Sequence record: OX457022
Length of the DNA stretch: 44,532 nucleotides
DNA from: Escherichia phage vB_EcoP-CC1
Direction: 5' to 3' (one strand)
Position numbers and translations under genes: made by a program. The notes below the pieces were generated by a model that made no database searches, was not told where the DNA came from, and saw only the letters and a list, made by a program, of their open reading frames with translations. Shown here piece by piece: positions 2,500 to 35,771 of this stretch. Position 1 is the stretch's first letter. Every line of letters begins with the position of its first letter.

Positions 2500-2515
2500 A
2501 ATGGAGGAATTAATT

Positions 2516-3001
2516 ATGTCAGAGACTGATATTAGAAAGATTGATATTGGAGAGTACGTCGTACGCCGTGCAGCTTACCGAGATGCCAACTGGAATAAAC
2601 TGTGTGAAAGACTAAACAAGAAACCAGATGAGGTATTCAAAGTATCCAGTGCAGAACCTAATTATAACTCTATCATGTTAGAAGGTGTTGAGAAGCGCGA
2701 ATGGTATGCGCCTTACTTCCATGTTGTTGACTCATTGCAAGGTGAAGAACCTAACACGTTGGACAACAATATGGTTACTAAGCCGAAGCACTATGAGTTC
2801 TTCGAAGGTGTAGAAGCGATTACTATCATTGCCCGCAGCATGACCGAGAAGCAATTCGCTGGCTATTGCATGGGTAATGCTTTGAAGTACCGCCTACGTG
2901 CAGGTAAGAAGTTCAACACTGAAGAAGACCTGAAGAAAGCAGACTACTATAAGGAGTTATTCCAGAAGCATCGTCACGAATGTATTGATGAGGATATTTG
3001 A
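2516..3001 (+). CDS. T7 gp1.7-like protein (DUF3310; nucleotide kinase family)
   Basis: GGAGG lies 8 nt before the ATG at 2516. KPKHYEFFEGVEAITIIARSMTEKQFAGYCMGNALKYRLRAGKK...ADYYKELFQKH parallels the T7 gp1.7 C-terminus (recalled). Confidence 0.7.
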   Translation: MSETDIRKIDIGEYVVRRAAYRDANWNKLCERLNKKPDEVFKVSSAEPNYNSIMLEGVEKREWYAPYFHVVDSLQGEEPNTLDNNMVTKPKHYEFFEGVEAITIIARSMTEKQFAGYCMGNALKYRLRAGKKFNTEEDLKKADYYKELFQKHRHECIDEDI

Positions 3002-15554: not shown

Positions 15555-15557
15555 TGG

Positions 15558-15601
15558 TATACTCAAGGTTTGTCTCACATGTGAGACATGCCTTTATGAA
15601 T
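15558..15601 (+). promoter_or_regulatory. RNase III-like hairpin with a palindrome apex (TATACTCAAGGT-tTGTCTCACATGTGAGACAt-GCCTTTATGAAT)
   Basis: It is intergenic. The flanks are identical to those of the hairpin at 41961-41996 and resemble the T7 R0.3 segment CTCAAGGGT...GCCCTTTATGAT (recalled). Confidence 0.55.
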
Positions 15602-15621
15602 GACACTGACTAGGAGGTAAC

Positions 15622-18600
15622 ATGGTTGATAGTATTAACCAAAACTGGGTGGCGGTGACTCAACGCAAGTTACCGCCTACCTTCTCTCAAATTGCTGAAG
15701 CTGAGCGTAAGGCTGAAGCCCAGAGAGCTAATGATAAAGTGTTTCAAACAGCATTAGAAAGTGAGTGGGCTTTATATGGCGGACAACGTGCCTATGAACG
15801 CCACACTACAGAGTTTGCTGAACAAGAAGGCTATGAAGTGCCTGAGTCAACTAAGGATGAGTTATCCAAGTTGTATGGGTATGAAATAGCGCAAGACATA
15901 GTTAAGAATGTAAAGTCTCCAGAAGAGTTGCAATTCCGTATGTCTAATGCTGCTGCTGATAAAGACAGAGCAGACATCTTAGCACGTAATGGTTTCACGG
16001 GTTTCAGCGCGCAGATTGCTGCTGGCATCCTTGACCCTGTAGGTTGGGCTGCATCCTTAGTGGCTGCGCCTGTAGCGGGTGCTGTCAAAGTAGGTAGGCT
16101 AGGTAGGATTATCAAGACGGCTGCCTTATCAGGTGCTGAAAATGCTGCATTAGAAGCTATACTTGCACAAGGTGATTACCAGCGAGGGGTTGATGATGTA
16201 CTGGCTGCTGCCGGATTTGGTATGATTATGGGCGGCACTATTGGTGCTGCAACCAGAGAGCGCATAGCCAGTGCTGGTTCTCGTACAGCGGCAGAACGAG
16301 CAGATGCTGTAGTTGATGACTTGGACACTGTAGTAAAAGGTGCTGATGAATTTGACTCGTCTGCGGCTCGTGCTGTACGTGAAGCTATGGAATATGACGC
16401 GTATATGGCAGCGCGTAATTACGAACCACTTCGTGCAAGAGAGGTAGATGCAGACATGGCGATTCTGTCTCACACAGACAATTTGAAAGCCAATGCATCG
16501 GTAAGGATGAGTGCTAGTGAGAAGGGGCAACTGAAGAAGCAGATACGTCAGCTTGAAGCAGAAGCAGCAACACTTAAAGGGAAGAAGATAGACACTGTAG
16601 CGGAAGCTGCGGCTGCTAAGGGTGCACCTAAATCTGCTGCTGACAGATTAGATTTGGATGTTCAGAAGAAAGCATTAGCACGTAGATTTGATGAACCACT
16701 GGCAGACTTACAAGCGCGTCTTGATGAGTTGAATGCTAAATTGTCTCGTGTAAACAATGTAGGCAAAGCCAAGGAAGAGCTTAAGAGATTCTCATCGCTA
16801 TCTCGTGAAGAGCAAATAAAGGAGTTAGGTCTAGACGCACCAGTGCGCAAGGTAGAGATGACCCGTGCCGTGCGAGATGCAATTGACGCAATCCGTGCCG
16901 AGCGTAAGAAGACGCCTACCGAAATACATGCTGAACAAGTCGCAGAAGATGCAATTAAGCAAAGGGCAGACGACTCTGTTGGTGCTAAACGTGTTGAAGG
17001 TTCAGAGATTGCAGGTGAACAGTTTGACCTATCTAAAAACATGGAAGAACTTATGGATGACTTGGCACGAGAAGCATACCAGTCAGAGGTGCGGCCTATT
17101 AATCTTAAGGGTTTAGGTTCAGTGTCTTCTGTGATTCTTAACTCAGAGAATCCTGTGTTCCGAGGCCTAGGTCTTCGTCTGCTTGAAAATGCTCAAGGTG
17201 GTGCATATCAAGGTAAGACAGCTTCTATCTTATCAGATGTGTATGGCAACCTTATTCGTCATGCAGAACGTAACAGATACAATGATGGCTTCTCTCAGTT
17301 CATCAAAGATAATAACCTACGTGCGGTAGACTATCTTAACCCTGCAACGACAAGGGATTTCAATAATCAGATTTATACAGCAATTGTTCGTGGCATACCA
17401 GAAGATACACCTCGTGGTGTTAAACTGGCAGCCGAAGGTATTGCAGATAAGCTCAAGAAAGCACTGGAGATTCGTAAGCAAGCAGGTGAGCGAGGCTTCG
17501 AGGATGTGCAATCTGCTAAAGATTATATTCCCGTTATCTACGATGGTATCAAGATCACAGAGGCAGTTAACAAGTTAGGTAGTAGTGAAGCTGTCATTCA
17601 CTTGCTATCTAAAGGGTATCAGACAGGCAAGTACAAACTTGGCAAGAAAGCTGCTGATGCACTAGCCAAAGTTCAGTATATTCGCGCATCTGACTCCACC
17701 CTCTCTAGTCGTGTTGCATTCGATAGGGTGGTATCCCAGCAGCAGCAGGCTCAATTGATTGAGGATCTGAAGAAAGCAGGAGTACCAGACCATATCATTG
17801 ATAATTTCATTGAAGGTACGGAATTAGCAGAAATGGCTGAATCGGTATCCAATCGAGCTAAAGCTAGTATGGGTATTAATACGCAAGCCGAATATGGCGG
17901 TTTGAAGGTGCAGGATTTGCTTAATACAAACGTAGGCGAGCTAGCTGAGAACTACGGCAAAGAGGCAGCAGGCGGTGCTGCATTAGCTGCCATGGGTTTC
18001 CCCACTCGCCAGTCTGTGCTGAATGCGATAGATGCCGCAGAACGCGCAGGTCGTAATATGGCGGGGTCAAATGCTAAGGCAATCAAACAGCTTAGGGCTG
18101 AGGCAGAAATGCTCAGAGATGCCGTTAAGCTCATTTACGGCAACACTATTGACGCCGACCCTAACTCTGGAATTGTCAGGGGCACTCGACGTGTCCGTGA
18201 GATTACAGGCTTGTTACGATTGGGTCAAATGGGCTTCGCTCAGATACCAGAACTGGCACGTGCAATCTCTAAGATGGGATTAGGTACTGTGCTGAAGTCC
18301 ATACCTGCCACGAAGTTCTTACGTTCAAGGGCGGCTCGTAAGGGAGGAACAGCTCAAGGTGAATTACTTGAACCTGAACTGCGAGAAATGGAGGAACTCT
18401 TAGGCTATATCGGGGAAGATAACTGGCTTACAGGGTGGAACGTCCGTCATGATGAGTTCGGAGAAACTGCTGATAACCTAGGTAAGCTGTCTGCTATTAT
18501 TGATAACGGATTAGCTATGGGTAGTAGAATCAACACAATACTCTCTGGATTTAAAGCAGTACAAGGTGGTTCAGAGAAAATTGTAGCTCGCTCTATCAAT

Positions 18601-19425
18601 AAGAGATTAAAGCAGCACTTGATGGGTGAGAGACAATTACCTAAAGCAGACCTTGAAGAAGTAGGCCTAAGTGAAGATGTCATGAAAAGACTTAAGCGTC
18701 ACTTTGATGACAACCCTCTGTACGCTGAGTACAATGGAGAAAAAGTTCGTATGCTGAACTTTGATGCTATGGAGCCAGACCTGAGAGAGACAGTGGGTGT
18801 TGCTGTGCGAAGAATGTCAGGCCGTCTTATTCAACGTAACTTCATTGGCGATGAAGGTATCTGGATGAATAAATGGTGGGGTAAGGCATTAACGCAGTTT
18901 AAGTCATTCTCTATTGTCTCTATTGAGAAACAGCTAATCCATGATTTACGAGGTGATAAGATTCAGGCTGCACAGATACTTGCATGGTCTACTTTACTAG
19001 GTTATGCATCTTATGCACTACAGATGCAGATGCAAGCGATTGGTAGGGAGGATAGAGACAAGTTCTTGAGGGATAAGTTTGACACACAGAACATCGCTAT
19101 GGGTGTCTTTAATAAACTTCCACAAGTTGCAGGCTTTGGTTTAGCTGGTGATGCTTTGGCAACCTTTGGCCTAATGCCAGACTCCATGATGCAAGCACCG
19201 GGACGCATGGGTTTCCGTCAGCAAGGCTTTGGGGATTTGGTAGCAGGTGCTGGTGTAATAAGTGATACAGTTAATTTGTCACAAGCACTGGTTAAGTATG
19301 CCAGTGGAGACGATGATGTCTCTACGAGGCAGTTGGTAGACAAGGTTCGTCGCCTTGTTCCTTTGGCAAATACTATTGGTGTGGGTCAGATGACTAAAGC
19401 CAGTGTAGATTTATTGGAGGATTGA
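15622..19425 (+). CDS. Internal virion protein C (gp16-position, 1267 aa)
   Basis: Called from size, synteny and the SD TAGGAGG. Confidence 0.8.
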   Translation: MVDSINQNWVAVTQRKLPPTFSQIAEAERKAEAQRANDKVFQTALESEWALYGGQRAYERHTTEFAEQEGYEVPESTKDELSKLYGYEIAQDIVKNVKSPEELQFRMSNAAADKDRADILARNGFTGFSAQIAAGILDPVGWAASLVAAPVAGAVKVGRLGRIIKTAALSGAENAALEAILAQGDYQRGVDDVLAAAGFGMIMGGTIGAATRERIASAGSRTAAERADAVVDDLDTVVKGADEFDSSAARAVREAMEYDAYMAARNYEPLRAREVDADMAILSHTDNLKANASVRMSASEKGQLKKQIRQLEAEAATLKGKKIDTVAEAAAAKGAPKSAADRLDLDVQKKALARRFDEPLADLQARLDELNAKLSRVNNVGKAKEELKRFSSLSREEQIKELGLDAPVRKVEMTRAVRDAIDAIRAERKKTPTEIHAEQVAEDAIKQRADDSVGAKRVEGSEIAGEQFDLSKNMEELMDDLAREAYQSEVRPINLKGLGSVSSVILNSENPVFRGLGLRLLENAQGGAYQGKTASILSDVYGNLIRHAERNRYNDGFSQFIKDNNLRAVDYLNPATTRDFNNQIYTAIVRGIPEDTPRGVKLAAEGIADKLKKALEIRKQAGERGFEDVQSAKDYIPVIYDGIKITEAVNKLGSSEAVIHLLSKGYQTGKYKLGKKAADALAKVQYIRASDSTLSSRVAFDRVVSQQQQAQLIEDLKKAGVPDHIIDNFIEGTELAEMAESVSNRAKASMGINTQAEYGGLKVQDLLNTNVGELAENYGKEAAGGAALAAMGFPTRQSVLNAIDAAERAGRNMAGSNAKAIKQLRAEAEMLRDAVKLIYGNTIDADPNSGIVRGTRRVREITGLLRLGQMGFAQIPELARAISKMGLGTVLKSIPATKFLRSRAARKGGTAQGELLEPELREMEELLGYIGEDNWLTGWNVRHDEFGETADNLGKLSAIIDNGLAMGSRINTILSGFKAVQGGSEKIVARSINKRLKQHLMGERQLPKADLEEVGLSEDVMKRLKRHFDDNPLYAEYNGEKVRMLNFDAMEPDLRETVGVAVRRMSGRLIQRNFIGDEGIWMNKWWGKALTQFKSFSIVSIEKQLIHDLRGDKIQAAQILAWSTLLGYASYALQMQMQAIGREDRDKFLRDKFDTQNIAMGVFNKLPQVAGFGLAGDALATFGLMPDSMMQAPGRMGFRQQGFGDLVAGAGVISDTVNLSQALVKYASGDDDVSTRQLVDKVRRLVPLANTIGVGQMTKASVDLLED

Positions 19426-22400
19426 TGAGTTATACATATACAGACCATGTAGCTAATGGCTCACAGGTTACATTCCCTTTTCGTTTTGCAGGCAGAGATA
19501 AGGCATACATTAGTGCGACAGATGTCCAAGTGGGTTTTGTAGAAGCAGGCACTTGGCTGCCAGCAACAGGTTGGACGCTAAGTGGCACCAATCAGATCAC
19601 TTTCTTAACCCCACCGACAGAAGGTAAACAAATACGAATCAGACGTATTGTAGATAAAATAAACCCATATGCTTACTTCGAGCGGGGTAATGTTTTAGAT
19701 ATTAACTCTTTAAATAACTCATTCATTAAGAACCTGCAAGTCAGTCAAGAAATCCTTGATGGCTTCTTCCCAGAAGGTTTCTACTTCAAGACAGACTTAG
19801 ACATGGGTGGTCATAAGATCATAAACCTACATGAAGGTTCGGAGTCAGGTGATGCTGTAAATTATGATCAGTTTAAAGAGTTATCAGACCGCGTTAATGA
19901 GATTGAGTCAGATTTAACAGGTTTATCTCACAGAACAGTACCTATGTATTATATTGCAACTGGCGGAGAGTCACGTTGGGAGATCGGTCACTGGACTTTC
20001 GACGCTGCAATATTATTTATTAATGGTATATTCCAGAACCAAAACCTAGGAGCTTTTACCATCAGCAACAACGGTTTTAACTTTGCAGAACCATTGCAGA
20101 AGGGGGATGAAGTATATGCCCTTGTAGGAAGCCGCATTGCAGCACCCGATGAGTATGTAACAATCTCTGACTTGAAAGACCCAGATAAAGCATGGAGGCT
20201 AATTGGACGTAAGTACCCATTTGCGACAGATGGAACTTTTATGTCAAAAGTGGTACATGATGTAGACTACTCCAATATCTTCATTGGAGCATCAGGACTT
20301 AGTCAAGGCTTCTGTATTGTAGACACTCCGCAAGGTGCTCGCATGTTCTTCCATCAACCTATCCCAAGCACTAATAAGGTTCGTTTCGTTGAAACAACCT
20401 TTAACCCTGAAGGGGATAATGAAAATCCTTCTGTTATTTCATTCAGCCAGGAACTGGATGATATTGGACACCAGACTGTGTGTGGTGTATATGAGGCGGG
20501 GGGTGTGCGTTTGTACACCTTGAGTGCAGATGAAAAATCTTATTATATCATAGATTGGTTAGGTAATAATACGTCTAATGCACATATGCGTAAGGTGCAG
20601 ATCCCTACGGAGGGTATCTACTCTAAGGACTTATTTGTCTCAGTGGGCATGTCAGAAGATACTAAAACGCTGGTATTCCATGCAACCACCAATACTCAGG
20701 CTTTTGGTAACAAGGATGATGCGAGAGCTATTTACCTCTTCGATAGAAAAACATTGGATTCAACCTCAACTAGAGGTCTTAAGCGTAGATTCGAAGTAGG
20801 AGCACCTGCTGCACCAGATATGGTCTTCCAAGGGGTTGCTTGTGATGACCGCTTCTTGTATATATATCAGGGATATAATGGTGTCCTGCTGTCTCACAAG
20901 ATCTCCGTCTTCACCCTCTCAGGGGAGCATGTACGGGATATTCCCGTTGATAGTGTGCGTGTAAAATATGGAGAAAGGATGTATGGTGACGAAACTTTAG
21001 GGTATCCTGTATTGCAGGAACCGGAAGGTTTGGCAATGTATAAAGGCAAACTTTATATGTTGTGTATGGATTTCTGGTACAAGAATGCAAGTGTAGTTAC
21101 TTTCGCTGGCAGGACTTTTGCTACAAGGAAATCTTCAGCGTTTTCTGGGTACAGTCCATTACAAGCATCATATTGGACACCTACGAACCTAATACCACCT
21201 ACGGGTGCACCAGAGTATAACAAGACTGCTACTTATTCCTGCTCTAATGCTACTAAGCTCAGTAAAGCTATTGTTAGCTTAGAAATAGATGATGGCACAG
21301 GCTTCCCTGCAAGTGTTGGGTGTTCTTTGCCAGAGAGTAGCGCCAGTGTATACCTAAACAACCGAGCGATGAATATGGCTATTGGCCCGAATGAAAACTT
21401 CCAGTTTGGGGTATTTCACCAGAACCTACAGTCATACAAAAACCTGTTACAGCTCAATAGAGAGAACCCAAATACGGATGGATCAGCGGCTGTGTGGAGG
21501 TTGTTCGGAGGTGCGTTCACAGATGACATTCAGAATGAAAGATTTGTTCAGATTAAGCATAGACTTAATCCCACACAAGATGCCATGGAGCTTCGTGCGG
21601 ATGTTGACCTTACGAGCGGTGGTGGGATTAACTTGTATTCTATGAACGACTCTGCCTCTCCTGGTCGAGTAAGGCTATATTGTACTGACGGGTATTCTTA
21701 TTGGTCAGCTCTACTGAGTCCTGTATCCCCATCTTTTCACCCTGATCAAGATAAGACTCTAAACTTAGGTACAGCAAACAACCGTTGGAACCTAGTCCAT
21801 TGTCAAGGTATCCGTATCATCTCTAACGACGAGTTACAGAAGCAAGTCTTTCTTGAAACTACCCGTAAAAAAGGTGCACTACAGATCTCCACTTCCGGCA
21901 ATCTAGGGGTGTGGGATAGTAGCGCAGGTACTTATGTTGTGGCAACCAGACCTGATGGTACAGGCTTTTCACAGGTAGAGATGAGCTTCAAAGGTGATGT
22001 TTTTCCTGAAATAAATAATACTTACAATTTAGGTCGTGAGAATAAGGCATGGGCTAATGCCTACTTTCAAAACGCACCGACTGTTGTCTGTGATGCCAGA
22101 CTTAAAACAGATGCTAGGGAGTTAACAGACGCAGAGAAATCCGCATTCTTAGAGATCTCTAAACTTCCGGCAGTTTGGCAATGGCTTGCTAAACTGGAAG
22201 TAGAAGGAGAGGATGCCCGCTTACACTCTGGATGTACTGTCCAAGCTGCTATCTCGGTTATGGAGAAACATGGCCTAGATTGGACTAAGTATAGTGCTTT
22301 CTGTTATGACAAATGGGATGCCAAGGAGGCTGTCTATGATATAGTGGATGGTAAGGCTATCCTTGTTGAAGAGGCAGTTGAGGCTGGCGACCGTTATCGT

Positions 22401-22508
22401 CTTCGTAGAGAAGAGCTGATGTGGTGGTGCATGAAGGCACAGAATGCTTGGATTGAATCTATTGAGGGGAGGCTGGCGAAATTAGAAGATAAACTCAAGG
22501 AGGTGTAA
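19425..22508 (+). CDS. Tail fibre/tailspike 1: T7 gp17-like N-terminal anchor, unassigned central domain, C-terminal S74-type intramolecular chaperone
   Basis: The N-terminus MSYTYTDHVANGSQVTFPFRF...GHKIINL...GDAVNYDQF fits the T7 tail-fibre N-terminal pattern. The C-terminus NLGRENKAWANAYFQNAPTVVCDARLKTD fits the G....W...Y.......SD.RLK junction, but with Cys in place of Ser. Confidence 0.85.
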   Translation: MSYTYTDHVANGSQVTFPFRFAGRDKAYISATDVQVGFVEAGTWLPATGWTLSGTNQITFLTPPTEGKQIRIRRIVDKINPYAYFERGNVLDINSLNNSFIKNLQVSQEILDGFFPEGFYFKTDLDMGGHKIINLHEGSESGDAVNYDQFKELSDRVNEIESDLTGLSHRTVPMYYIATGGESRWEIGHWTFDAAILFINGIFQNQNLGAFTISNNGFNFAEPLQKGDEVYALVGSRIAAPDEYVTISDLKDPDKAWRLIGRKYPFATDGTFMSKVVHDVDYSNIFIGASGLSQGFCIVDTPQGARMFFHQPIPSTNKVRFVETTFNPEGDNENPSVISFSQELDDIGHQTVCGVYEAGGVRLYTLSADEKSYYIIDWLGNNTSNAHMRKVQIPTEGIYSKDLFVSVGMSEDTKTLVFHATTNTQAFGNKDDARAIYLFDRKTLDSTSTRGLKRRFEVGAPAAPDMVFQGVACDDRFLYIYQGYNGVLLSHKISVFTLSGEHVRDIPVDSVRVKYGERMYGDETLGYPVLQEPEGLAMYKGKLYMLCMDFWYKNASVVTFAGRTFATRKSSAFSGYSPLQASYWTPTNLIPPTGAPEYNKTATYSCSNATKLSKAIVSLEIDDGTGFPASVGCSLPESSASVYLNNRAMNMAIGPNENFQFGVFHQNLQSYKNLLQLNRENPNTDGSAAVWRLFGGAFTDDIQNERFVQIKHRLNPTQDAMELRADVDLTSGGGINLYSMNDSASPGRVRLYCTDGYSYWSALLSPVSPSFHPDQDKTLNLGTANNRWNLVHCQGIRIISNDELQKQVFLETTRKKGALQISTSGNLGVWDSSAGTYVVATRPDGTGFSQVEMSFKGDVFPEINNTYNLGRENKAWANAYFQNAPTVVCDARLKTDARELTDAEKSAFLEISKLPAVWQWLAKLEVEGEDARLHSGCTVQAAISVMEKHGLDWTKYSAFCYDKWDAKEAVYDIVDGKAILVEEAVEAGDRYRLRREELMWWCMKAQNAWIESIEGRLAKLEDKLKEV

Positions 22509-27333: not shown

Positions 27334-28857
27334 ATGGCTAAACTAACGAGAGTCACTGACTGGCTTGTTAAGGTAAAGTCCAGACTCACTGGTGCAGTAG
27401 AGCGACTGCTTGAAGATAAGTTAAATGACACGGTTAGTGTTAAGGACTTCGGTGCTAAGGGTGACGGTGTGACAGACGACACACAAGCATTTGCTGCCGC
27501 CTCAGCCGCATCGCCTCAAGGTGTTTATGTGCCTGACGGAACATATTTATTACCAGAAGATATTAATGGCAGGTTCTATGGTTCTGGTAAACGCATCAAG
27601 GCTGTAGGTGATGGTGGTATTCCTTTTACCAATGTAGCTCAGTCACATAGTAACCTAATATTAGGATATGATGCTGCAAAGGATTACACGGACGAAGGGA
27701 AAGGCAACCAATTAGTATTACTTGGCCCAAGCTCCGGTCGTAACCTTACCACTGGTACTAACTCCATTGTGGTAGGTGTTGGTGGCCTATCGGGTGATAC
27801 ATTAGAAGATGCACTAACAGATAAATCACCTTTCACTGGTACAGAGATTATTAGCATTGGTATCAATGCTCTTAAGAAAACTACCACTGGTAACAACATG
27901 ATTGGTATTGGTCGTGATGCCCTGAACGAGTGTAAGGATGGAAGATTCAACGTAGCTATAGGTATGTCTGCTTTGCAGCAGCTACACTCTGGTGAGGCTA
28001 ACGTAGCAATAGGGCGTTCAGCCGGTATGCGTACTGGCATCTTCACTAACGAAGATGGTGTACGATTAGGCTATACAAAATGTAGCGGTAATACCTTAAT
28101 AGGTAACGCGGCTGGTCGTGAATTGAAGTCAGGTAATCATAACACCGCCGTAGGCAATGGTGCTATGCGAGGTGTCAGTTCTGATATTAATCCATATACT
28201 GGCACTCTAGAGGGTAATTTTAATACAGCTATTGGTGTTGATACCTTAAACTCCTTAGCATCTGGTGAGTTGAACACCATGATTGGCGCAAGGGCTGGGC
28301 GTAAATTACCTAGTGGCTCTGGTAACATCTTCATCGGTGCGGATGCAGGTGCAGGTATTAACATTGAAAAGTCTAACACTCTCATTATTAACAACCACAC
28401 TGGCTTACCTTTCGTAGAAGGTATTATGGATGGTGCTCAGAGTGAGAATAACTACTTACGTGTTGATGGAAGTGTAGCACCTCAGATTGATAACACAAGA
28501 ACTTGTGGTCAGTCTAGCCGTAGATGGCAGACTGTCTTTTCTACCAATGGTGTTATCCAGACATCGGATGGACGATGCAAGGATGTCTACGATATTGCCA
28601 AGACGGAGTACATGGCTGGTCTAGAGTTATCTTCTAGTATGATTAAGTTCAAATGGACAGATACTAAAGAAGATAAGTATCACTTCGGTTGTCTGGCACA
28701 AGAGGTCATGCTGATTATGGAGAAACATGGGTTAAACCCTCTGGATTATTCCCTCGTTACCTATGATGCTGAAGCAGATATGTATGGTGTTAACTATGCA
28801 GAATTGTCTTGCTTCTGTATCGCAGCAATGTCCAATCATGTACTAGGCAGTGCGTAA
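27334..28857 (+). CDS. Tail fibre/tailspike 2 with a C-terminal S74-type chaperone
   Basis: AGGAG precedes the ATG at 27334. VKDFGAKGDGVTDDT is a pectate-lyase-3-type motif. About 9 repeats fit the N.(A/I/V)IG..A(L/G) pattern. The C-terminus reads RRWQTVFSTNGVIQTSDGRCKDV...YHFGCLAQEV. Confidence 0.8.
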   Translation: MAKLTRVTDWLVKVKSRLTGAVERLLEDKLNDTVSVKDFGAKGDGVTDDTQAFAAASAASPQGVYVPDGTYLLPEDINGRFYGSGKRIKAVGDGGIPFTNVAQSHSNLILGYDAAKDYTDEGKGNQLVLLGPSSGRNLTTGTNSIVVGVGGLSGDTLEDALTDKSPFTGTEIISIGINALKKTTTGNNMIGIGRDALNECKDGRFNVAIGMSALQQLHSGEANVAIGRSAGMRTGIFTNEDGVRLGYTKCSGNTLIGNAAGRELKSGNHNTAVGNGAMRGVSSDINPYTGTLEGNFNTAIGVDTLNSLASGELNTMIGARAGRKLPSGSGNIFIGADAGAGINIEKSNTLIINNHTGLPFVEGIMDGAQSENNYLRVDGSVAPQIDNTRTCGQSSRRWQTVFSTNGVIQTSDGRCKDVYDIAKTEYMAGLELSSSMIKFKWTDTKEDKYHFGCLAQEVMLIMEKHGLNPLDYSLVTYDAEADMYGVNYAELSCFCIAAMSNHVLGSA

Positions 28858-28937: not shown

Positions 28938-29087
28938 ATGCCGTTGATCAAATCAGTTAAGCAAAGTGCTGTACACCAGAACACAGAAGAACTTATTCAA
29001 TCAGGACGTGACCCTAAGCAGGCCTATGCCATTGCCAAGGATGTACAGCGTCGTGCCATGAAGAAACCTTCTGCATCTTCTGCGTAA
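28938..29087 (+). CDS. Hypothetical 49-aa basic protein
   Basis: AAGGAGG precedes the ATG. The sequence is MPLIKSVKQSAVHQNTEELIQSGRDPKQAYAIAKDVQRRAMKKPSASSA. Confidence 0.5.
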   Translation: MPLIKSVKQSAVHQNTEELIQSGRDPKQAYAIAKDVQRRAMKKPSASSA

Positions 29088-29221
29088 TCAGGTTAATATC
29101 TTAGTGTACACAAGGGCAAACCTATGATAGCTCACAGCACACCTCTGAGTGCCGCTCTGGATTCTATGAATTGTTCCCTGACTATCTAGGTTTGCTCTTA
29201 GTATATTACAAAGGAGGTCAC

Positions 29222-29377
29222 ATGATTTGGATCCACACGTATGGTGTAGGGTCATTCAAGAAGAATGTACTCAGGAAGATCCATGAGTCCGAGGAATCAG
29301 CCTTAGCCAGCCAGAAGGTACTTGGTGGTACTATCCAGTGCTACATGAAGAAGCCACAAGGTTTTGACTTAGTGTAA
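29222..29377 (+). CDS. Hypothetical 51-aa protein (last gene before the genome end)
   Basis: AAAGGAGG precedes the ATG at 29222. The longer track ORF beginning at 29171 lacks an SD. Confidence 0.45.
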   Translation: MIWIHTYGVGSFKKNVLRKIHESEESALASQKVLGGTIQCYMKKPQGFDLV

Positions 29378-29435
29378 CCAAAGGTGGTCACAAAGTAACC
29401 AAAGTCAAAATTTTGATGTAGGCGTGTGTCAGCCC

Positions 29436-29724
29436 TCTCGCCCTCGCCCTCGCCGGGTTGTCCCCATAGGGTGGCCTGAGGGAATCCGTCTTCGACGGGC
29501 AGGGCTGATGTACTCCTTGTACTAGCTTAGTAGTACACAAGGGCTGGCCTTTTGTTTTGCCATGTACTAGCAAGGTGGAACGCTGGAGAGCGCCTAGGAC
29601 GGCCTAGGGATGGGCTTAGTGGTGGACAAGGTGATTGCCTTAGTGAAGCCTCTTAGTGCATTCCTGAGGCCATTCAGGGCGTTTATGAGATATTGACAGG
29701 GTGTGCGTGGGTGGGCTATCTGTT
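29436..29724 (+). other. Presumptive terminal-repeat / concatemer-junction region
   Basis: TCTCGCCCTCGCCCTCGCC begins at 29436, CCCCATAGGG lies at 29462-29471 and CTATCTGTT ends at 29724. These parallel T7 left-end features (TCTC..., CCCCCATAGGGGG, CCCTATCTGTT; recalled). The boundaries are not determinable from a collapsed assembly. Confidence 0.45.
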
Positions 29725-29794
29725 CGTTTCGTTCACTCCGCTTGCGCTACGTTCACTCGCTCACGTGTACCTTAGGTTGTTCCTTGATGGATAG

Positions 29795-29897
29795 CTTAGG
29801 TTAGCCTTAGTGGACTACCTTAGTTATAACCTTAGTGCTTATCTTAGTAATAGCTTAGTAATGTACCTTAGTAAGTCTTAGTGTCTTCTCTTAGTGA
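29795..29897 (+). repeat. Dense array of 9 CTTAG(T/G) short repeats spaced 10-13 bp
   Basis: Read directly. About 10 more copies are scattered across 29526-30216 and one lies at 30835. It is analogous to the T7 SRL/SRR arrays next to the terminal repeat. Confidence 0.8.
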
Positions 29898-30042
29898 TTG
29901 CACATGCAAGCATGTAAGATGCCATTAGGTCGCGGTCGGTAGACCGCTAAAGAAAGAGAATAGTAATAAGATGCAGTAGGAGGAACACCAGAAACCTAGC
30001 CAACCTAACCTATCCTAGCTCTGTATCTATTGCTTTTCCTTA

Positions 30043-30058
30043 GTCTAACATGTGAGAC
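30043..30058. repeat. Palindrome family copy, 1 mismatch (GTCTAACATGTGAGAC)
   Basis: Read directly. It is intergenic, 35 bp upstream of the -35 element of the first early promoter. Confidence 0.7.
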
Positions 30059-30092
30059 AACCTAGATTTATCTTAGTGATGATAGCTTAGTG

Positions 30093-30121
30093 TTGACAAG
30101 GCCATCTCAATGTAATACTAT
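30093..30121 (+). promoter_or_regulatory. Host sigma70 early promoter (TTGACA-17 bp-TACTAT)
   Basis: It has a consensus -35 element, 17-bp spacing and a good -10 element, upstream of the first early ORFs. Confidence 0.65.
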
Positions 30122-30192
30122 TCATCACGTAGGCAGCACTGAGGTGCTTAGTAGCCAGCTAGTAAGGCATACGAAGAGACTAGTGCCTGCAT

Positions 30193-30209
30193 TGCTCTTT
30201 AACAATTTG
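30193..30209 (+). promoter_or_regulatory. rrn-type boxA (TGCTCTTTAACAATTTG)
   Basis: It matches the E. coli rrn leader boxA TGCTCTTTAACAA. A hairpin at 30132-30190 precedes it. Confidence 0.65.
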
Positions 30210-30263
30210 CTTAGTGTAACCTATGTATGCCGTGGTTAATTACTTATTGAATGAGGGTTAACT

Positions 30264-30359
30264 ATGAATTACGAAGAAATGTATGAAGACTACTTCAATT
30301 CACTTGATGAAGGAGAAGAAGCATTGTCCTTTGCTGAGTTTATGGAGGCTTTATCATGA
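30264..30359 (+). CDS. Early 31-aa highly acidic peptide
   Basis: GAGGG precedes the ATG. The sequence is MNYEEMYEDYFNSLDEGEEALSFAEFMEALS. It is coupled to the next ORF by an ATGA overlap. Confidence 0.45.
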   Translation: MNYEEMYEDYFNSLDEGEEALSFAEFMEALS

Positions 30360-30532
30360 TTCTGAATAACCGTGAACTATCCATTCTCTTCACCTTGTTG
30401 TGCTATATGATTCGTAACAACGAATTACTTACAGACGATGAACTGGCACTATATCACCGTTTCCTTAACGAAGGTTGGGTCGATACAGTTAACCAGAAAC
30501 GTGACTTGATGAAGGAGTTAAGCAATGTTTAA
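30356..30532 (+). CDS. Early 58-aa hypothetical protein
   Basis: GGAGG precedes the ATG, and the ORF overlaps both of its neighbours. Confidence 0.5.
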   Translation: MILNNRELSILFTLLCYMIRNNELLTDDELALYHRFLNEGWVDTVNQKRDLMKELSNV

Positions 30533-30734
30533 ACATGAGATTTACACTGATTGCAGTAAATCGGCTAAAGCTATCTGCGATTTGTACAAGGCAGAATGCC
30601 AGACGTACAACCTCAACGATGGTACTGAGATGTTTTATCTTCAGTTTGAAAGCAAGTTATCTCACAAACGAGTGATTAACAGCCTGAATCAACACTCCTT
30701 GGAGTGGGAAGAAGTAAATAGCAATAAAGTTTAA
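30525..30734 (+). CDS. Early 69-aa hypothetical protein
   Basis: AAGGAG precedes the ATG, and the ORF is listed in the track. Confidence 0.55.
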   Translation: MFKHEIYTDCSKSAKAICDLYKAECQTYNLNDGTEMFYLQFESKLSHKRVINSLNQHSLEWEEVNSNKV

Positions 30735-30742
30735 ATTAACTA

Positions 30743-30771
30743 TTGACAGCCACGGCATACAAGGTTACATT
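30743..30771 (+). promoter_or_regulatory. Host sigma70 early promoter (TTGACA-17 bp-TACATT)
   Basis: It has a consensus -35 element and 17-bp spacing, upstream of ocr. Confidence 0.65.
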
Positions 30772-30803
30772 AAGCATCAAGACGGCGACGTCTTTAAACA
30801 TCC

Positions 30804-30820
30804 CGCTCTTTAACAATTTG
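30804..30820 (+). promoter_or_regulatory. boxA (CGCTCTTTAACAATTTG)
   Basis: It has the same 16-nt core as 30194-30209. T7 carries CGCTCTTTAACAATCTGG ahead of gene 0.3 (recalled). A GACG-GCGA-CGTC hairpin precedes it at 30781-30792. Confidence 0.65.
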
Positions 30821-30913
30821 GATGGTAGCTTCTTAGTCTGGATAGGTTAAACCTAGGGGATTCTCTTGAGTCTCCTATAATGTAACCTAACTAACTAAAT
30901 GAGGATTAATAAC

Positions 30914-31273
30914 ATGACTATGTCTAATATGACTTACTCTCAGGTTTACAACACCGCTCATGCTGCATTAGTTGAACGTATCTGGAATGATGCTATTGAT
31001 TGTATCGATAACGCACATGATGCAATCCATGAGGTAGCGGACAGTGCTGTACCAATCTATTATGCTGACATCTTCTCAGTGATGGCGAGTGAAGGTATTG
31101 ATCACTTCTTCGAAGACTCCGGCCTGATGCCAGATACTAAGGATGTAACGGTCGTACTACAAGCCCGTATTTATGAACAACTCACCATTGATTTATGGGA
31201 ACGTGTTCAAGATATGATTGTTGCGTACACCAATTACGCTGAGGATTCAGAAGAAGAAGAAGAGGAAGAATAA
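30914..31273 (+). CDS. ocr: Ocr (T7 gp0.3) homologue: DNA mimic, type I R-M/BREX inhibitor
   Basis: MTMSNMTY...[61 protein letters not shown] is near-identical to recalled T7 Ocr, and it has an acidic tail. Confidence 0.9.
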
Positions 31274-31275
31274 GG

Positions 31276-31389
31276 ATGGAAAAGCAATATAACTTTATCT
31301 TTTCAGACGGTGTGACCCTGAAGTGTTCCCTGCGTTTCGCACAGATTCGCGAGGAAGTGCTAGGAACTACATACAAACTATTTAGCTGA
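31276..31389 (+). CDS. Early 37-aa hypothetical protein
   Basis: The ORF starts 2 nt after the ocr stop. The sequence is MEKQYNFIFSDGVTLKCSLRFAQIREEVLGTTYKLFS. Confidence 0.4.
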   Translation: MEKQYNFIFSDGVTLKCSLRFAQIREEVLGTTYKLFS

Positions 31390-31402
31390 CACTATAAGAG
31401 AG
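31380..31402 (+). promoter_or_regulatory. Phage RNAP promoter variant (ATTTAGCTGACACTATAAGAGAG)
   Basis: It has the SP6-like TGACACTATA core, but A rather than G at the predicted +1 (31397). Confidence 0.55.
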
Positions 31403-31462
31403 GGTTTAACAGGGCGCTCTTGCGAGAGTGCCCGATTAAATCAACTTAACGAGATATTAAAT

Positions 31463-31639
31463 ATGAAATACATACTGATTGCTATGTTTTCTGGCTTCAT
31501 TGGCTATGCTGGTGCTTCTTATGACAACTACAGAAGTAAGCAATTGGCTGCTGAAAAGTGGGATAAAACCTATTTTGCTTGTATGAAACAAGGTAATTTG
31601 ATGCAAGATTGCATACTTAAAGCGCACAGCGAAGAGTGA
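31463..31639 (+). CDS. 58-aa protein with an N-terminal hydrophobic segment
   Basis: The ORF is under 60 aa and has a weak SD. The sequence begins MKYILIAMFSGFIGYAGA.... Confidence 0.35.
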   Translation: MKYILIAMFSGFIGYAGASYDNYRSKQLAAEKWDKTYFACMKQGNLMQDCILKAHSEE

Positions 31640-31703
31640 TGAGCCTATAGCCTACTTAAGTGGGCTATGTGAACACCATTCATTAACTCAAAAGGTGACT
31701 ATT

Positions 31704-32627
31704 ATGACTACTGAAAACACCCTCCTGTCTGTTCGTGAAGCTGCAACCGCTGAGATCAAGCAACACTTAGACAATATCGGCACTTCTTACATCAAAGTTG
31801 GCGCTTGTCTTAATGAGTTACGCGGTGACTTTGAAGGTCAAAAAGACTTTTTGGCTTATGTAGAATCAGAATTTGGAATCAAGAAAGCACAATGTTACAA
31901 GCTGATGAGTGTAGCCCGTGTCTTTGAAGGCGATGATCGCTTTAAAGGCGTGGCGATGCGTGTAATGCTGGCACTTGTTCCTTTCGCTGATGAAAATATC
32001 ATCATGGAGAAAGCCGCAGAACTTGCCGCAGCGGGCAAGCTGGACACTAATGCCGTAAATGCCCTGATTGATCCTAAGAAAGAGACAAAGGCCGAGACGG
32101 TACAATCTAAGGCTGAGGCGGTAAAACCGCAGGAGAATGCGACTGAGGCCGCAGAAACTATGCAAGGACATGCGACCTTTGAGGATTTCATCTTAGAGAA
32201 GGCGAAAGAGGAATTACAAAGTGTGCCGCCAGTAAGTGAGTCGGGTAACGACGAATCCGCACCGTGGGAAGATGAAAGCAAGCCGGAAGCGCCAAAGGCC
32301 GCGCCACTGGATAACACGGCTAACACGGAGAACGCCGCTATGTCTGGCCTACTGGCACAAATTAAGGCACTGACTGAGCAATTACAGGCAGCTAACGACC
32401 GCATCGCCGCCCTAACCAGTGCACGGGAAGGTAAGAAAGCGGCTGCGCCTATGCTTCCGCAGTTTAAATCCTCTTGCTTCTACGCTCGCTTAGGCTTGAG
32501 CGCCGAGGAAGCAACGAAGAAAACAGCAGTGAATAAGGCACGCCGTGAACTGGTTAAACTAGGGTATGGTGAAGGTCATGAGGCATGGCCTTTGATCTCT
32601 GAGGCAGTAGAAGAATTAACTAAGTAA
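31704..32627 (+). CDS. Early protein with a DUF3102-like N-terminal domain
   Basis: AAGGTG precedes the ATG at 31704. IKQHLDNIGTSYIKVGACLNELRGDFEGQKDFLAYVESEFGIKKAQCYKLMSVARVF fits the remembered DUF3102 pattern. The middle is acidic and Ala-rich, and a coiled coil follows. Confidence 0.6.
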   Translation: MTTENTLLSVREAATAEIKQHLDNIGTSYIKVGACLNELRGDFEGQKDFLAYVESEFGIKKAQCYKLMSVARVFEGDDRFKGVAMRVMLALVPFADENIIMEKAAELAAAGKLDTNAVNALIDPKKETKAETVQSKAEAVKPQENATEAAETMQGHATFEDFILEKAKEELQSVPPVSESGNDESAPWEDESKPEAPKAAPLDNTANTENAAMSGLLAQIKALTEQLQAANDRIAALTSAREGKKAAAPMLPQFKSSCFYARLGLSAEEATKKTAVNKARRELVKLGYGEGHEAWPLISEAVEELTK

Positions 32628-32690
32628 CCTTATCGGTGGCATCTTCTTAGGTGTCACCTATTAAGGTTTCTTTCACTAGGAGTAAACAAG

Positions 32691-35318
32691 ATGCAAGATC
32701 TACACGCTATTCAGCTTCAGCTTGAGGAAGAAATGTTTAACGGCGGTATTCGTCGCTTTGAAGCAGACCAACAACGCCAGATTGCATCAGGTAATGAATC
32801 CGATACGGCATGGAATCGTCGCCTGTTGTCGGAGCTTATCGCACCTATGGCGGAAGGTATTCAGGCTTATAAGGAAGCCTACGAAGGAAAGAAAGGACGC
32901 GCACCGCGTGCACTGGCCTTCATTAACTGCGTAGAGAACGAAGTGGCAGCATATATCACGATGAAGATCGTAATGGATATGCTTAACACAGATGTAACCT
33001 TGCAAGCCATAGCAATGAATGTAGCTGATCGCATCGAAGATCAAGTACGCTTCAGCAAGCTGGAAGGCCACGCCGCCAAATACTTTGAAAAAGTTAAGAA
33101 GTCACTCAAGGCAAGTAAGACTAAATCATATCGCCATGCGCACAACGTAGCGGTAGTGGCTGAGAAGTCAGTAGCTGACCGTGACACTGATTTCTCCCGC
33201 TGGGAGGCGTGGCCTAAAGATACCTTACTGCAAATCGGTATGACCTTGCTAGAAATACTGGAGAATAGCGTATTCTTCAATGGTCAACCTGTCTTCCTCC
33301 GCACCTTGCGCACTAATGGTGGCAAGCATGGTGTTTACTACTTACAGACCAGTGAGCACGTAGGGGAGTGGGTTACAGCATTTAAAGAACATGTAGCGCA
33401 ACTTAGTCCGGCCTATGCACCTTGCGTCATTCCTCCGCGCCCTTGGGTGTCCCCTTTTAATGGTGGGTTTCATACTGAGAAGGTGGCAAGTCGCATCCGT
33501 TTGGTAAAAGGCAACCGTGAGCACGTCCGTAAGCTGACCAAAAAGCAAATGCCAGCAGTTTATAAGGCTGTTAATGCTTTACAGGCCACTAAGTGGCAAG
33601 TTAACAAAGAAGTTTTGCAGGTAGTAGAAGACGTTATCCGTCTCGACCTTGGTTATGGTGTACCTTCCTTTAAACCACTCATCGACCGCGAGAACAAGCC
33701 GGCTAACCCAGTGCCGTTAGAATTTCAACACTTGCGAGGCCGCGAACTGAAGGAAATGTTAACGCCGGAACAATGGCAAGCCTTCATCAACTGGAAAGGT
33801 GAATGCACCAAGCTGTATACCGCTGAGACTAAGCGCGGAAGTAAGTCGGCGGCAACCGTTCGCATGGTAGGACAAGCGCGCAAATACAGCCAGTTTGATG
33901 CGATTTATTTCGTGTATGCACTGGATAGCCGCTCACGCGTTTATGCGCAATCTAGCACACTCTCACCGCAATCAAACGACCTAGGCAAGGCGTTACTGCG
34001 TTTTACCGAAGGGCAGCCGCTAAATAGCTCTGAGGCGCTTAAATGGTTTTTGGTGAACGGGGCGAATAACTGGGGTTGGGATAAGAAGACTTTCGACGTG
34101 CGCACCGCTAACGTACTGGACGGCGAGTTTCAAGATATGTGCCGCGACATTGCAGCGGATCCTCTGACCTTTACTCAATGGGTAAATGCCGATTCACCTT
34201 ATGGATTCCTTGCATGGTGCTTTGAGTATGCTCGTTATTTGGATGCACTGGATGAAGGAACACAAGATCAGTTTGTGACGCATTTACCTGTTCATCAAGA
34301 TGGTAGCTGTTCTGGCATCCAGCACTACAGTGCTATGCTACGCGACGAAGTGGGTGCGAAGGCGGTAAACCTTAAACCATCCGACTCGCCTCAAGATATT
34401 TATGGAGCGGTTGCGCAGGTTGTTATCCAGAAGAACTACGCCTACATGAATGCAGATGATACAGAAACTTTCACATCTGGAAGCGTAACACTTACAGGTG
34501 CAGAACTGCGCAGCATGGCTAACGCGTGGGATATGATTGGGATCACTCGCGGCTTAACCAAAAAGCCAGTAATGACCTTGCCATACGGCTCCACCCGCTT
34601 AACCTGCCGTGAATCGGTGATTGATTATATCGTTGATTTGGAAGAAAAAGAGGCGCAGAGAGCTGTTGCCGAAGGGCGGACGGCTAATCCTGTGCACCCT
34701 TTTGATAATGACCGTAAAGACTATCTGACACCTGGTGCAGCTTACAACTATATGACCGCTTTAATTTGGCCTTCTATCTCTGAGGTTGTTAAAGCGCCTA
34801 TAGTGGCGATGAAAATGATTCGCCAGCTTGCACGATTCGCAGCTAAAAGAAACGAAGGGTTAGAGTACACCTTACCCACTGGTTTCATCTTGCAGCAAAA
34901 GATAATGGCTACCGACATGCTACGCGTATCCACTTGCTTGATGGGTGAAATCAAGATGAGTCTACAGATTGAGACTGATGTAGTGGATGAAACGGCAATG
35001 ATGGGCGCTGCCGCTCCTAACTTTGTTCACGGTCATGATGCGAGTCACCTTATTCTGACTGTATGTGACCTAGTTGACAAAGGTATTACATCAATTGCAG
35101 TTATTCATGACTCTTTCGGAACTCATGCAGGCCGTACATCAGATCTTCGTGATAGCTTAAGGGCAGAAATGGTTAAGATGTATCAAGGGCGTAACGCCTT
35201 GCAGCAATTGCTGGATGAGCATGAAGAACGTTGGTTGGTGGACACTGGCATTCAAGTGCCGGAACAAGGGGAGTTTAACCTTGAAGAGATATTAGTTTCT
35301 GACTATTGTTTTGCATAA
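32691..35318 (+). CDS. Single-subunit DNA-directed RNA polymerase (SP6-type)
   Basis: [32 protein letters not shown]... and most of the length closely follow the recalled SP6 RNAP. The C-terminus ends ...YCFA. Confidence 0.98.
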
Positions 35319-35642: not shown

Positions 35643-35771
35643 ATGCGTAACTTTGAGAAGATGACCCGTAAAGCTAACCGTTTTGACATGGAAGAAGGGC
35701 AGACGAGAGGCAAGAAGCTGAATAAACCTGTCCGTGACCGTGCATCTAAACGAGCAGCGTGGGAGTCCTAA
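35643..35771 (+). CDS. T7 gp1.1-like 42-aa basic protein
   Basis: GGAG precedes the ATG. MRNFEKMTRKANRF...GKKLNKPVRDRASKRAAWES compares with recalled T7 gp1.1 MRNFEKMTKRSNRN...GRKLNKTKRDRSHKRSWEGQ. It is not in the track because it is under 60 aa. Confidence 0.6.
   Translation: MRNFEKMTRKANRFDMEEGQTRGKKLNKPVRDRASKRAAWES

Follow-up and report, generated by a model that had tools for sequence, protein, structure and literature searches.

The ocr locus of Escherichia phage vB_EcoP-CC1: a conserved slot with probable exchange of alleles among SP6-like phages

After comparing the ocr locus of Escherichia phage vB_EcoP-CC1 (sequence record OX457022; the whole 44,532-nucleotide stretch is called the window here) with the corresponding loci of related phages, we propose that the locus is, overall, an early anti-restriction unit. 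Its slot, which holds a promoter, a boxA, a leader hairpin, the ocr gene and a 37-residue (37-aa) open reading frame (ORF), would be ancestral to SP6-like phages, and the ocr coding sequence (CDS) would have been swapped among co-infecting Autographiviridae; we give this reading a probability of roughly 0.88. Judged from sequence comparisons, 30914-31273 is a standard, already annotated Ocr gene and a resident early gene of SP6/K1-5-like phages, and the slot is mosaic by allele replacement inside a conserved slot rather than by a T7 import specific to the window genome. The gene counts as already known, because the record of phage vB_EcoP-CC2 carries a gp0.3 annotation and ocr sits in the same slot in SP6 and K1-5. 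It is an ordinary gene, and the allele-swap pattern is a modest lead for the study of anti-defence evolution.

The features of the locus are as follows.

30743 to 30771, plus strand: candidate sigma70-type early promoter (-35 TTGACA at 30743-30748, a 17-nucleotide (nt) spacer and -10 TACATT at 30766-30771)
30804 to 30817, plus strand: boxA CGCTCTTTAACAAT, an rrn-type antitermination signal, 33 nt after the -10 hexamer
30829 to 30904, plus strand: long imperfect leader hairpin that ends in the ocr Shine-Dalgarno sequence, a candidate RNase III site
30901 to 30905, plus strand: Shine-Dalgarno sequence GAGGA, 8 nt upstream of ATG 30914, aligning with GAGG of T7 gene 0.3
30914 to 31273, plus strand: ocr (gp0.3 homologue), 'A1' allele, encoding 119 aa with a net charge of -23 and a poly-Glu tail
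31276 to 31389, plus strand: 37-aa ORF directly after ocr, the right flank of the swappable ocr cassette

vB_EcoP-CC2 (OX638290.1; Vectrevirus, Molineuxvirinae) is 100% identical to the 901 bases spanning the locus, and a further 75 records, mostly Vectrevirus, match the same bases at 80-99.6%. The window is a rotated near-copy of OX638290.1 and is longer by 1 base (window position equals record position minus 12007); the first mismatch lies at window position 21366, inside the gene for a 1027-aa tail protein. The CC2 counterpart of the gene, CAI9889097.1, is labelled 'Overcome classical restriction gp0.3', and its product is 100% identical to the window Ocr. The initial annotation described the backbone as SP6/K1-5-like, which the RNA polymerase supports with 85% identity to SP6, 97% to K1-5 and 32% to T7. 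Chance would account for neither this backbone nor the Ocr match, the boxA 14-mer or the promoter site.

The Ocr protein

The ORF spans 30899-31273, and its sensible start is ATG 30914. ATG 30899 (124 aa) was rejected as the start, being without a Shine-Dalgarno sequence, and the T7 and SP6 proteins align from ATG 30914. We also discounted a coding role for a 35-aa ORF with a TTG start (30743-30850), which runs across the promoter and boxA and into the hairpin.

The proposal that the 119-aa product is an Ocr homologue was borne out by profile, sequence and structure searches. The Pfam profile PF08684 (DNA mimic ocr) matched with 143.9 bits (cutoff 25; E=2.5e-42) over positions 1-100 of 101, and phmmer aligned residues 1-117 with PDB entry 1s7z (T7 Ocr) over its full length (E=4e-40). 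By BLASTP, 69 of 102 residues were identical to T7 gp0.3 (68%; E=5e-47), and identity over the full-length alignment was 64%. The initial annotation had called the core near-identical to T7 Ocr; the strings it quoted are present, but the core is highly similar only, with 86% identity (44/51) over residues 47-97, compared with 52% over residues 1-46 and 35% in the tail. The AlphaFold2 model of the window Ocr reached a predicted local distance difference test (pLDDT) score of 89 and a predicted template modelling (pTM) score of 0.81. With this model, Foldseek recovered eight T7 Ocr chains (template modelling (TM) scores of 0.79-0.90; root-mean-square deviations of 1.0-1.7 Å) and, at E<0.9 in the PDB, nothing besides T7 Ocr chains.

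The composition is that of an acidic DNA mimic, with 27 Asp/Glu against 4 Lys/Arg residues, an isoelectric point (pI) of 4.05 and a net charge of -23, compared with -28 in T7 Ocr. The acidic positions of T7 Ocr are kept at 23 of 34 sites, and F54 is kept as well. The ratio of nonsynonymous to synonymous substitution rates (dN/dS) was 0.07-0.24 wherever it was computable and 0.07 inside the window's allele group. The plasmid and transposon anti-restriction protein ArdA shares the acidic DNA-mimic strategy against type I restriction-modification (R-M), but its sequence family is unrelated to Ocr and its fold is different; PF08684 was the sole match in the Pfam search of the window Ocr, and ArdA was not detected there.

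The acidic tail is replaced in some homologues. Ocr of phiA1122 (906-1328; 140 aa) has an extra Pfam domain, PF27024, in its place, and Ocr of SH3 (950-1459; 169 aa) has a C-terminal extension.

Exchange of alleles within a conserved slot

The gene ocr was found in the same slot in 11 of 11 other Molineuxvirinae genomes or contigs examined, among them SP6, K1-5, K1E KY435490, ACG-C91, PK1A2, PDP21P3, GRNsp51, KpK44PH129C1 and two metagenomic Vectrevirus-like contigs. In all of these relatives the order is ocr, usually the 37-aa ORF, then a gene of about 300 aa and the RNA polymerase gene, and ocr-like RefSeq annotations stand at this position in SP6 (gp5, 1637-1996) and K1-5 (gp3, 1575-1907). 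Ocr homologues of SP6 and K1-5 were reportedly described in the 2004 genome papers of Scholl et al. and Dobbins et al. A passage of PMC2731889 (2009) cites the SP6/K1-5 genome paper for Ocr distribution, and conservation of Ocr across Vectrevirus phages is noted in a paper of 2026. Ocr homologues are encoded by 571 records of the phage collection; the window allele occurs at an identity of at least 90% in 45 records, and the K1-5-type allele, again at 90% or above, in about 24 records of 44-46 kb. The closest relatives, vB_EcoP-CC2 and about 45 Vectrevirus records (VEc3, ACG-C91, LL11, Sem1-4 and KY435490 among them), have Ocr proteins 93-100% identical to that of the window set behind the same leader and among the same neighbours; their gene already bears an Ocr or 'overcome classical restriction' annotation, and they show essentially no difference from the window, save for extra small ORFs in many. 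The A1 allele lineage thus far appears only on Vectrevirus backbones.

Within this conserved slot, the ocr CDS does not follow the backbone. RNA polymerase identity is 96-100% within Vectrevirus, about 85% to SP6-like genera and 33-35% to T7-like phages. Among Vectreviruses with RNA polymerases 96-100% identical, Ocr identity ranges from 43% to 98%, and the Vectrevirus Ocrs of other allele types are only 43-72% identical to the window Ocr. The initial annotation had held that no mosaicism would be indicated if the module occurred at comparable divergence in all SP6-like relatives. Every relative examined does carry the module, but the degree of divergence varies widely from one relative to another.

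The clearest case is K1-5, which has the same slot, a leader 97% identical to that of the window and a 37-aa protein (K1-5 gp4) that is 100% identical to its window counterpart. We compared identity at the locus with identity in the flanks to seek a recombination boundary, a comparison the initial annotation had put forward, and sharp steps emerged at the CDS borders. Nucleotide identity to K1-5 is 97.6% over promoter and boxA, 97.2% over the leader and 60.3% over the ocr CDS, and it resumes within the GAAGAAGAGGAAGAATAA tail of ocr, from which point onward it is 92.9%; that of the RNA polymerase gene is 87.2%. The segment replaced relative to K1-5 would be the coding sequence alone. The K1-5 Ocr is 45-54% identical to the window Ocr, depending on the alignment, and 82% identical to EcoDS1 gp0.3, with which it falls in a Kayfunavirus-type clade.

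Synonymous divergence, expressed as the proportion of differing synonymous sites (pS), also departs from that of the RNA polymerase, in both directions. Against contigs L018 and L019, pS was higher for ocr (0.78-0.84) than for the RNA polymerase gene (0.55-0.60), and against KY435490 it was lower (0.24 compared with 0.51). The same decoupling is seen away from the window: the RNA polymerases of SP6 and GRNsp51 are 97% identical, yet their Ocrs are only 77% identical, with an ocr pS of 0.75.

In a tree built on about 109 columns, Ocr proteins fell into two deep clades, each mixing Molineuxvirinae with Studiervirinae and separated by identities of 40-52%. Clade A contains T7, phiA1122, SP6, GRNsp51, KpK44PH129C1 and the window's group, and clade B contains Kayfunavirus EcoDS1 and SH3, Przondovirus kpssk3 and Vectrevirus K1-5, PK1A2 and PDP21P3; the last three are 81-82% identical to EcoDS1. 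In the neighbour-joining tree the window Ocr joined alleles borne by Vectreviruses (82% bootstrap) and stood apart from T7, SP6, GRNsp51 and KpK44PH129C1. SP6 gp5 shares the slot, the backbone and the conserved promoter with the window, and its Ocr is 60% identical and belongs to a T7-like subclade.

Two records named phage K1E differ at this gene. KY435490 (3822-4178) has an ocr of the A1 type, 95% identical to that of the window, and the reference K1E (NC_007637.1/AM084415.1; 2346-2651) has one of the K1-5 type, 96% identical to K1-5 gp3.

We further consider it possible, though doubtful, that the slot is a maintained polymorphism in which old alleles (A1, A2 and B) cross subfamilies as exact CDS cassettes, with the leader/ATG, the GAA-rich tail and boxA as joints and with balancing selection as the driving force. 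Within that scenario we offer a similarly tentative cause, namely that Ocr-sensing defences (the phage anti-restriction-induced system (PARIS), EcoR22I and Ronin) oppose the need to block type I R-M and bacteriophage exclusion (BREX). If such a polymorphism exists, allele type would predict host range better than backbone.

Promoter, boxA and leader hairpin

The candidate promoter at 30743 matches 10 of 12 consensus positions, with a predicted start near 30778. Sigma70-like sites in the region numbered 6 against 6.7 expected, no excess over chance, so the call rests on conservation and not on the scan. The 29-mer, spacer included, is kept ahead of ocr in each of the nine named Molineuxvirinae genomes compared (the window, K1E KY435490, ACG-C91, PK1A2, PDP21P3, K1-5, SP6, GRNsp51 and KpK44PH129C1), and the pattern TTGACA-[G/A]CCACGGC[A/T]TACA..TACATT is specific to Molineuxvirinae, unlike T7. 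The 17-nt spacer CCACGGCATACAAGGT is kept across three Molineuxvirinae genera, though spacers normally vary freely, and it may carry an extra signal.

The initial annotation had pointed to a leader element in common with T7, and the 14-mer CGCTCTTTAACAAT at 30804-30817 is indeed identical to T7 812-825. It is also a host sequence: in PMC4553445, on Sodalis rRNA spacers, the box A antiterminator quoted for the rrn operons of enterobacteria reads 5'-CGCTCTTTAACAAT-3'. The 12-mer GCTCTTTAACAA has exactly two copies in the 44.5 kb of the window, at 30194 and 30805, both on the plus strand and downstream of early promoters; the element is present once in T7, twice in SP6 and three times in K1-5, always within the early region. 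The additional copy belongs to the following unit.

30093 to 30206, plus strand: first early promoter, TTGACA-N17-TACTAT at 30093-30121, and the boxA paired with it, TGCTCTTTAACAAT at 30193-30206

Promoter-boxA pairing of this kind is found in K1-5 (609/710) and SP6 (576/656) as well. Because the promoter at 30093 has a boxA of its own, the pairing characterises this early region in general and does not belong to an ocr cassette. Since CGCTCTTTAACAAT is the rrn boxA and a second copy lies at 30193, both phage groups copy the host boxA and not each other, and the shared 14-mer reflects convergence on, or retention of, a host signal; it provides no evidence of T7 ancestry. The site at 30804-30817 is presumed to load NusB/S10 on the nascent early RNA. 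Our literature search found no usable description of a role for boxA in T7 early transcription.

Several further observations concern boxA. Every early sigma70-like promoter of the window precedes an rrn-type boxA (30093-30206 and 30743-30817). Such sites lie at 710, 1255 and 1467 in K1-5 and at 2975, 3133 and 3713 in K1E KY435490, and in many relatives the promoter is separated from the ocr leader by one or two additional small ORFs, each terminating in another boxA. The repeated 12-14-mer may serve as a recombination joint for early-gene cassettes.

In the leader hairpin, an internal loop separates the lower stem from a 10-bp upper stem, which is capped by a tetraloop. The hairpin's minimum free energy is -29.7 kcal/mol (z=-3.3), and none of 200 shuffled sequences was as stable. 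Its architecture and location are common to PK1A2, SP6, KpK44PH129C1, T7 and EcoDS1, though the upper-stem sequences differ; z-scores were -3.3 to -5.6 for the window, PK1A2, SP6, KpK44PH129C1 and EcoDS1 and -2.4 for T7. The PK1A2 hairpin contains a compensatory change from G-C to U-A, and four pairs are changed on both sides in the Molineuxvirinae alignment. RNAalifold gave no consensus for 12 leaders from both subfamilies, since the upper stems fail to align, and it gave 17 pairs with weak covariation for Molineuxvirinae leaders only; the case for the hairpin therefore rests on individual folds. An Rfam scan of 29000-32800 at E<=1 returned no match, which places boxA and the hairpin outside curated RNA families. 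The distance from boxA to ATG is 109 nt in the window and 112 nt in T7. We take the T7 counterpart of the hairpin to be the R0.3 RNase III site (Dunn and Studier, 1983), and 30829-30904 is a candidate processing site equivalent to R0.3.

A 19-mer resembling an SP6-type promoter lies antisense within this hairpin (30871-30889, minus strand; chance expectation of 0.01 per window). It was rejected as a working promoter: both of its mismatches fall in the GACACTATA core, which is invariant in the seven plus-strand promoters, and the resemblance is absent in SP6.

Alternative explanations

Several points weigh against our interpretation of the locus as a swapped, early anti-restriction unit. Promoter activity, Nus-factor loading at boxA, RNase III cleavage and anti-restriction are all deduced from homology and position. 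Of the 34 acidic positions of T7 Ocr, 11 are non-acidic in the window protein, chiefly those of the N-terminal helices and the tail, so that the two proteins could differ in potency or in their range of targets. Strong purifying selection on the DNA-mimic surface would inflate cross-subfamily Ocr identity to some degree. Additionally, the deeper split within clade A is poorly supported, and with about 109 columns the direction and number of ocr transfers cannot be fixed.

The changes at acidic positions also suggest a relative with the Ocr fold but a shifted function, in which type I R-M would be inhibited more weakly or sensors would be escaped through acidic-residue loss. The lower net charge (-23 compared with -28) fits this explanation, and the diversity of alleles is as expected under pressure from Ocr-sensing defences. 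However, the core over residues 47-97 retains 86% identity to T7 and F54 is kept; the fold is predicted with high confidence, pI is 4.05 and dN/dS within the allele group is 0.07. We consider a shifted function unlikely.

Purely vertical descent was also considered: T7-like and SP6-like phages would have inherited ocr from a shared ancestor, with divergence in place only, and constraint on the DNA-mimic surface would account for the high identity between groups and a fast arms race for the differences within them. Both subfamilies share the gene's position, nearly the same distance from boxA to ATG and the hairpin architecture, dN/dS is low (0.07-0.24 where computable), and the Ocr identity to SP6 (60%) is near that of neighbouring early genes (63-79%). 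The gene tree, however, conflicts with the genome tree. T7 Ocr groups with those of SP6 and KpK44PH129C1 at 71-77% identity instead of falling outside Molineuxvirinae, and clade B unites K1-5, PK1A2 and PDP21P3 with Kayfunavirus and Przondovirus at 74-82%. The identity steps at the CDS borders against K1-5 (97% to 60% to 93%), the synonymous divergence of ocr that lies above or below that of the flanking RNA polymerase gene according to the partner, and the SP6/GRNsp51 pair point the same way. The present data already indicate breakpoints and transfers, and descent in place throughout is quite improbable.

The initial annotation had suggested a mosaic early module, on which reading an SP6-type genome would recently have received its promoter-boxA-ocr module, of T7 type, from a Teseptimavirus. 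Indeed, Ocr is the most T7-like product of the window, at 63-68% identity compared with 25-36% for the portal protein (head-tail adaptor), tail tube protein, terminase and RNA and DNA polymerases. Outside its own allele group, its best matches in the phage collection are Ocrs of the T7 group (64-69%), and the boxA 14-mer is the same as that of T7. A recent import would be expected to show unsaturated synonymous sites, nucleotide similarity to T7 well above background and a module absent from close SP6-like relatives. None of these was found: the window and T7 genes are 64% identical in nucleotides, synonymous sites are saturated (pS 0.85), the leader outside boxA has scattered matches only, and the slot was filled in all relatives examined. 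Moreover, SP6 Ocr is closer to T7 Ocr (77%) than the window Ocr is (64%), and the nearest Ocrs outside the allele group (70-72%) are on Vectrevirus-like contigs with RNA polymerases 96-98% identical to that of the window. With synonymous sites saturated, no recent import of ocr from T7 seems to have occurred; with a promoter and leader of the Molineuxvirinae type (97% identical to K1-5) and a boxA that is the host rrn sequence, transfer of the T7 module is largely refuted and very improbable.

A T7-type module in an SP6-type backbone is therefore the part of the initial annotation that failed, given the Molineuxvirinae promoter and hairpin, the host boxA, the occupied slot and the saturated pS. 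Its other wording, a mosaic or anciently retained module, survives in a divided form: retention fits the slot as a whole and mosaicism fits the exchange of the ocr CDS, but neither extends to an imported T7 module.

T7 gp0.3 and the window Ocr nevertheless remain alike in many respects, sharing the acidic DNA-mimic character, F54, the matching predicted fold, boxA and the long hairpin. Both genes sit behind promoters for host RNA polymerase, predicted ones in the window. They differ in the diverged N-terminal helices and tail and in promoter and hairpin sequences that are unrelated beyond consensus elements. The T7 gene is the first early gene, whereas three small ORFs come before ocr in the window.

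Ocr is not alone among window products in elevated identity to T7. The nucleotide kinase (2501-3001) shares 58% identity with T7 gp1.7 across 83 aa, and identity between the gp1.1 homologue (35643-35771) and its T7 counterpart is 56% across 41 aa.

Putative mechanism and implications

We suggest a possible model for the locus during infection. Once the leading end of the genome is inside the cell, host RNA polymerase would initiate at the sigma70 promoter at 30743, near 30778; the position of ocr at the leading end and its conserved sigma70-like promoter fit such candidate early expression. The transcribed boxA would recruit NusB/S10 and give rise to fast, Rho-resistant elongation of the rrn type, which would be useful to a phage that relies on early transcription to bring in its genome. 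The leader hairpin may then be cut by RNase III, like R0.3 of T7, leaving a stable 5' end, and Ocr would be translated from ATG 30914 of the processed mRNA. By homology to T7 gp0.3, Ocr, a highly acidic helical protein, would fill the DNA-binding groove both of type I R-M enzymes and of BREX BrxX/PglX before these meet phage DNA, and it would be detectable by Ocr-sensing systems such as PARIS AriA.

The initial annotation had likewise predicted blocking of type I R-M and BREX and sensing by PARIS. This agrees, by homology, with the literature and with solved structures of T7 Ocr, for which the PDB holds complexes with BrxX/PglX, AriA, RNA polymerase and a type I methyltransferase. In T7 Ocr, mutation of F54 lets the protein evade PARIS, as described in the literature. 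From homology only, we infer dimerisation, inhibition of type I R-M and BREX, and activation of PARIS by the window Ocr.

The phage would be expected to withstand type I R-M and BREX, yet to be vulnerable to abortive systems triggered by Ocr, which is relevant to choosing Vectrevirus phages for therapy against K1 or uropathogenic E. coli. Near-identical backbones carry Ocrs as little as 43-45% identical, apparently exchanged with T7-like and K1F-like phages; because such backbones carry divergent alleles, the anti-defence phenotype should not be inferred from genus alone.

Neighbouring genes and other mosaic regions

Downstream of ocr, the 37-aa ORF had no Pfam match, and it is followed by a promoter for the phage RNA polymerase.

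31383 to 31401, plus strand: SP6-type phage RNA polymerase promoter core TAGCTGACACTATAAGAGA, an exact pattern match downstream of the ocr unit

The SP6-type pattern has seven plus-strand matches in the window against 0.01 expected. Immediately behind the 37-aa ORF come the core TAGCTGACACTATAAGAGA and then a GC-rich hairpin, GGGCGCTCTTGCGAGAGTGCCC; together core and hairpin occupy 31383-31431, which probably marks the first possible start of transcription by the phage RNA polymerase.

A right-end host-range cassette had been proposed, and the 1027-aa tail protein (19425-22508) and a 507-aa putative tailspike (27334-28857) do diverge from SP6 and K1-5, with little or no similarity beyond the N-terminal adaptor part. 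The putative tailspike is 23% identical to its K1-5 counterpart and has no SP6 match. The internal virion proteins (12612-19425; 980 and 1267 aa) are 81-88% identical to those of SP6 and only 39-43% identical to those of K1-5, which reverses the pattern of most other genes and points to a large mosaic block unrelated to ocr.

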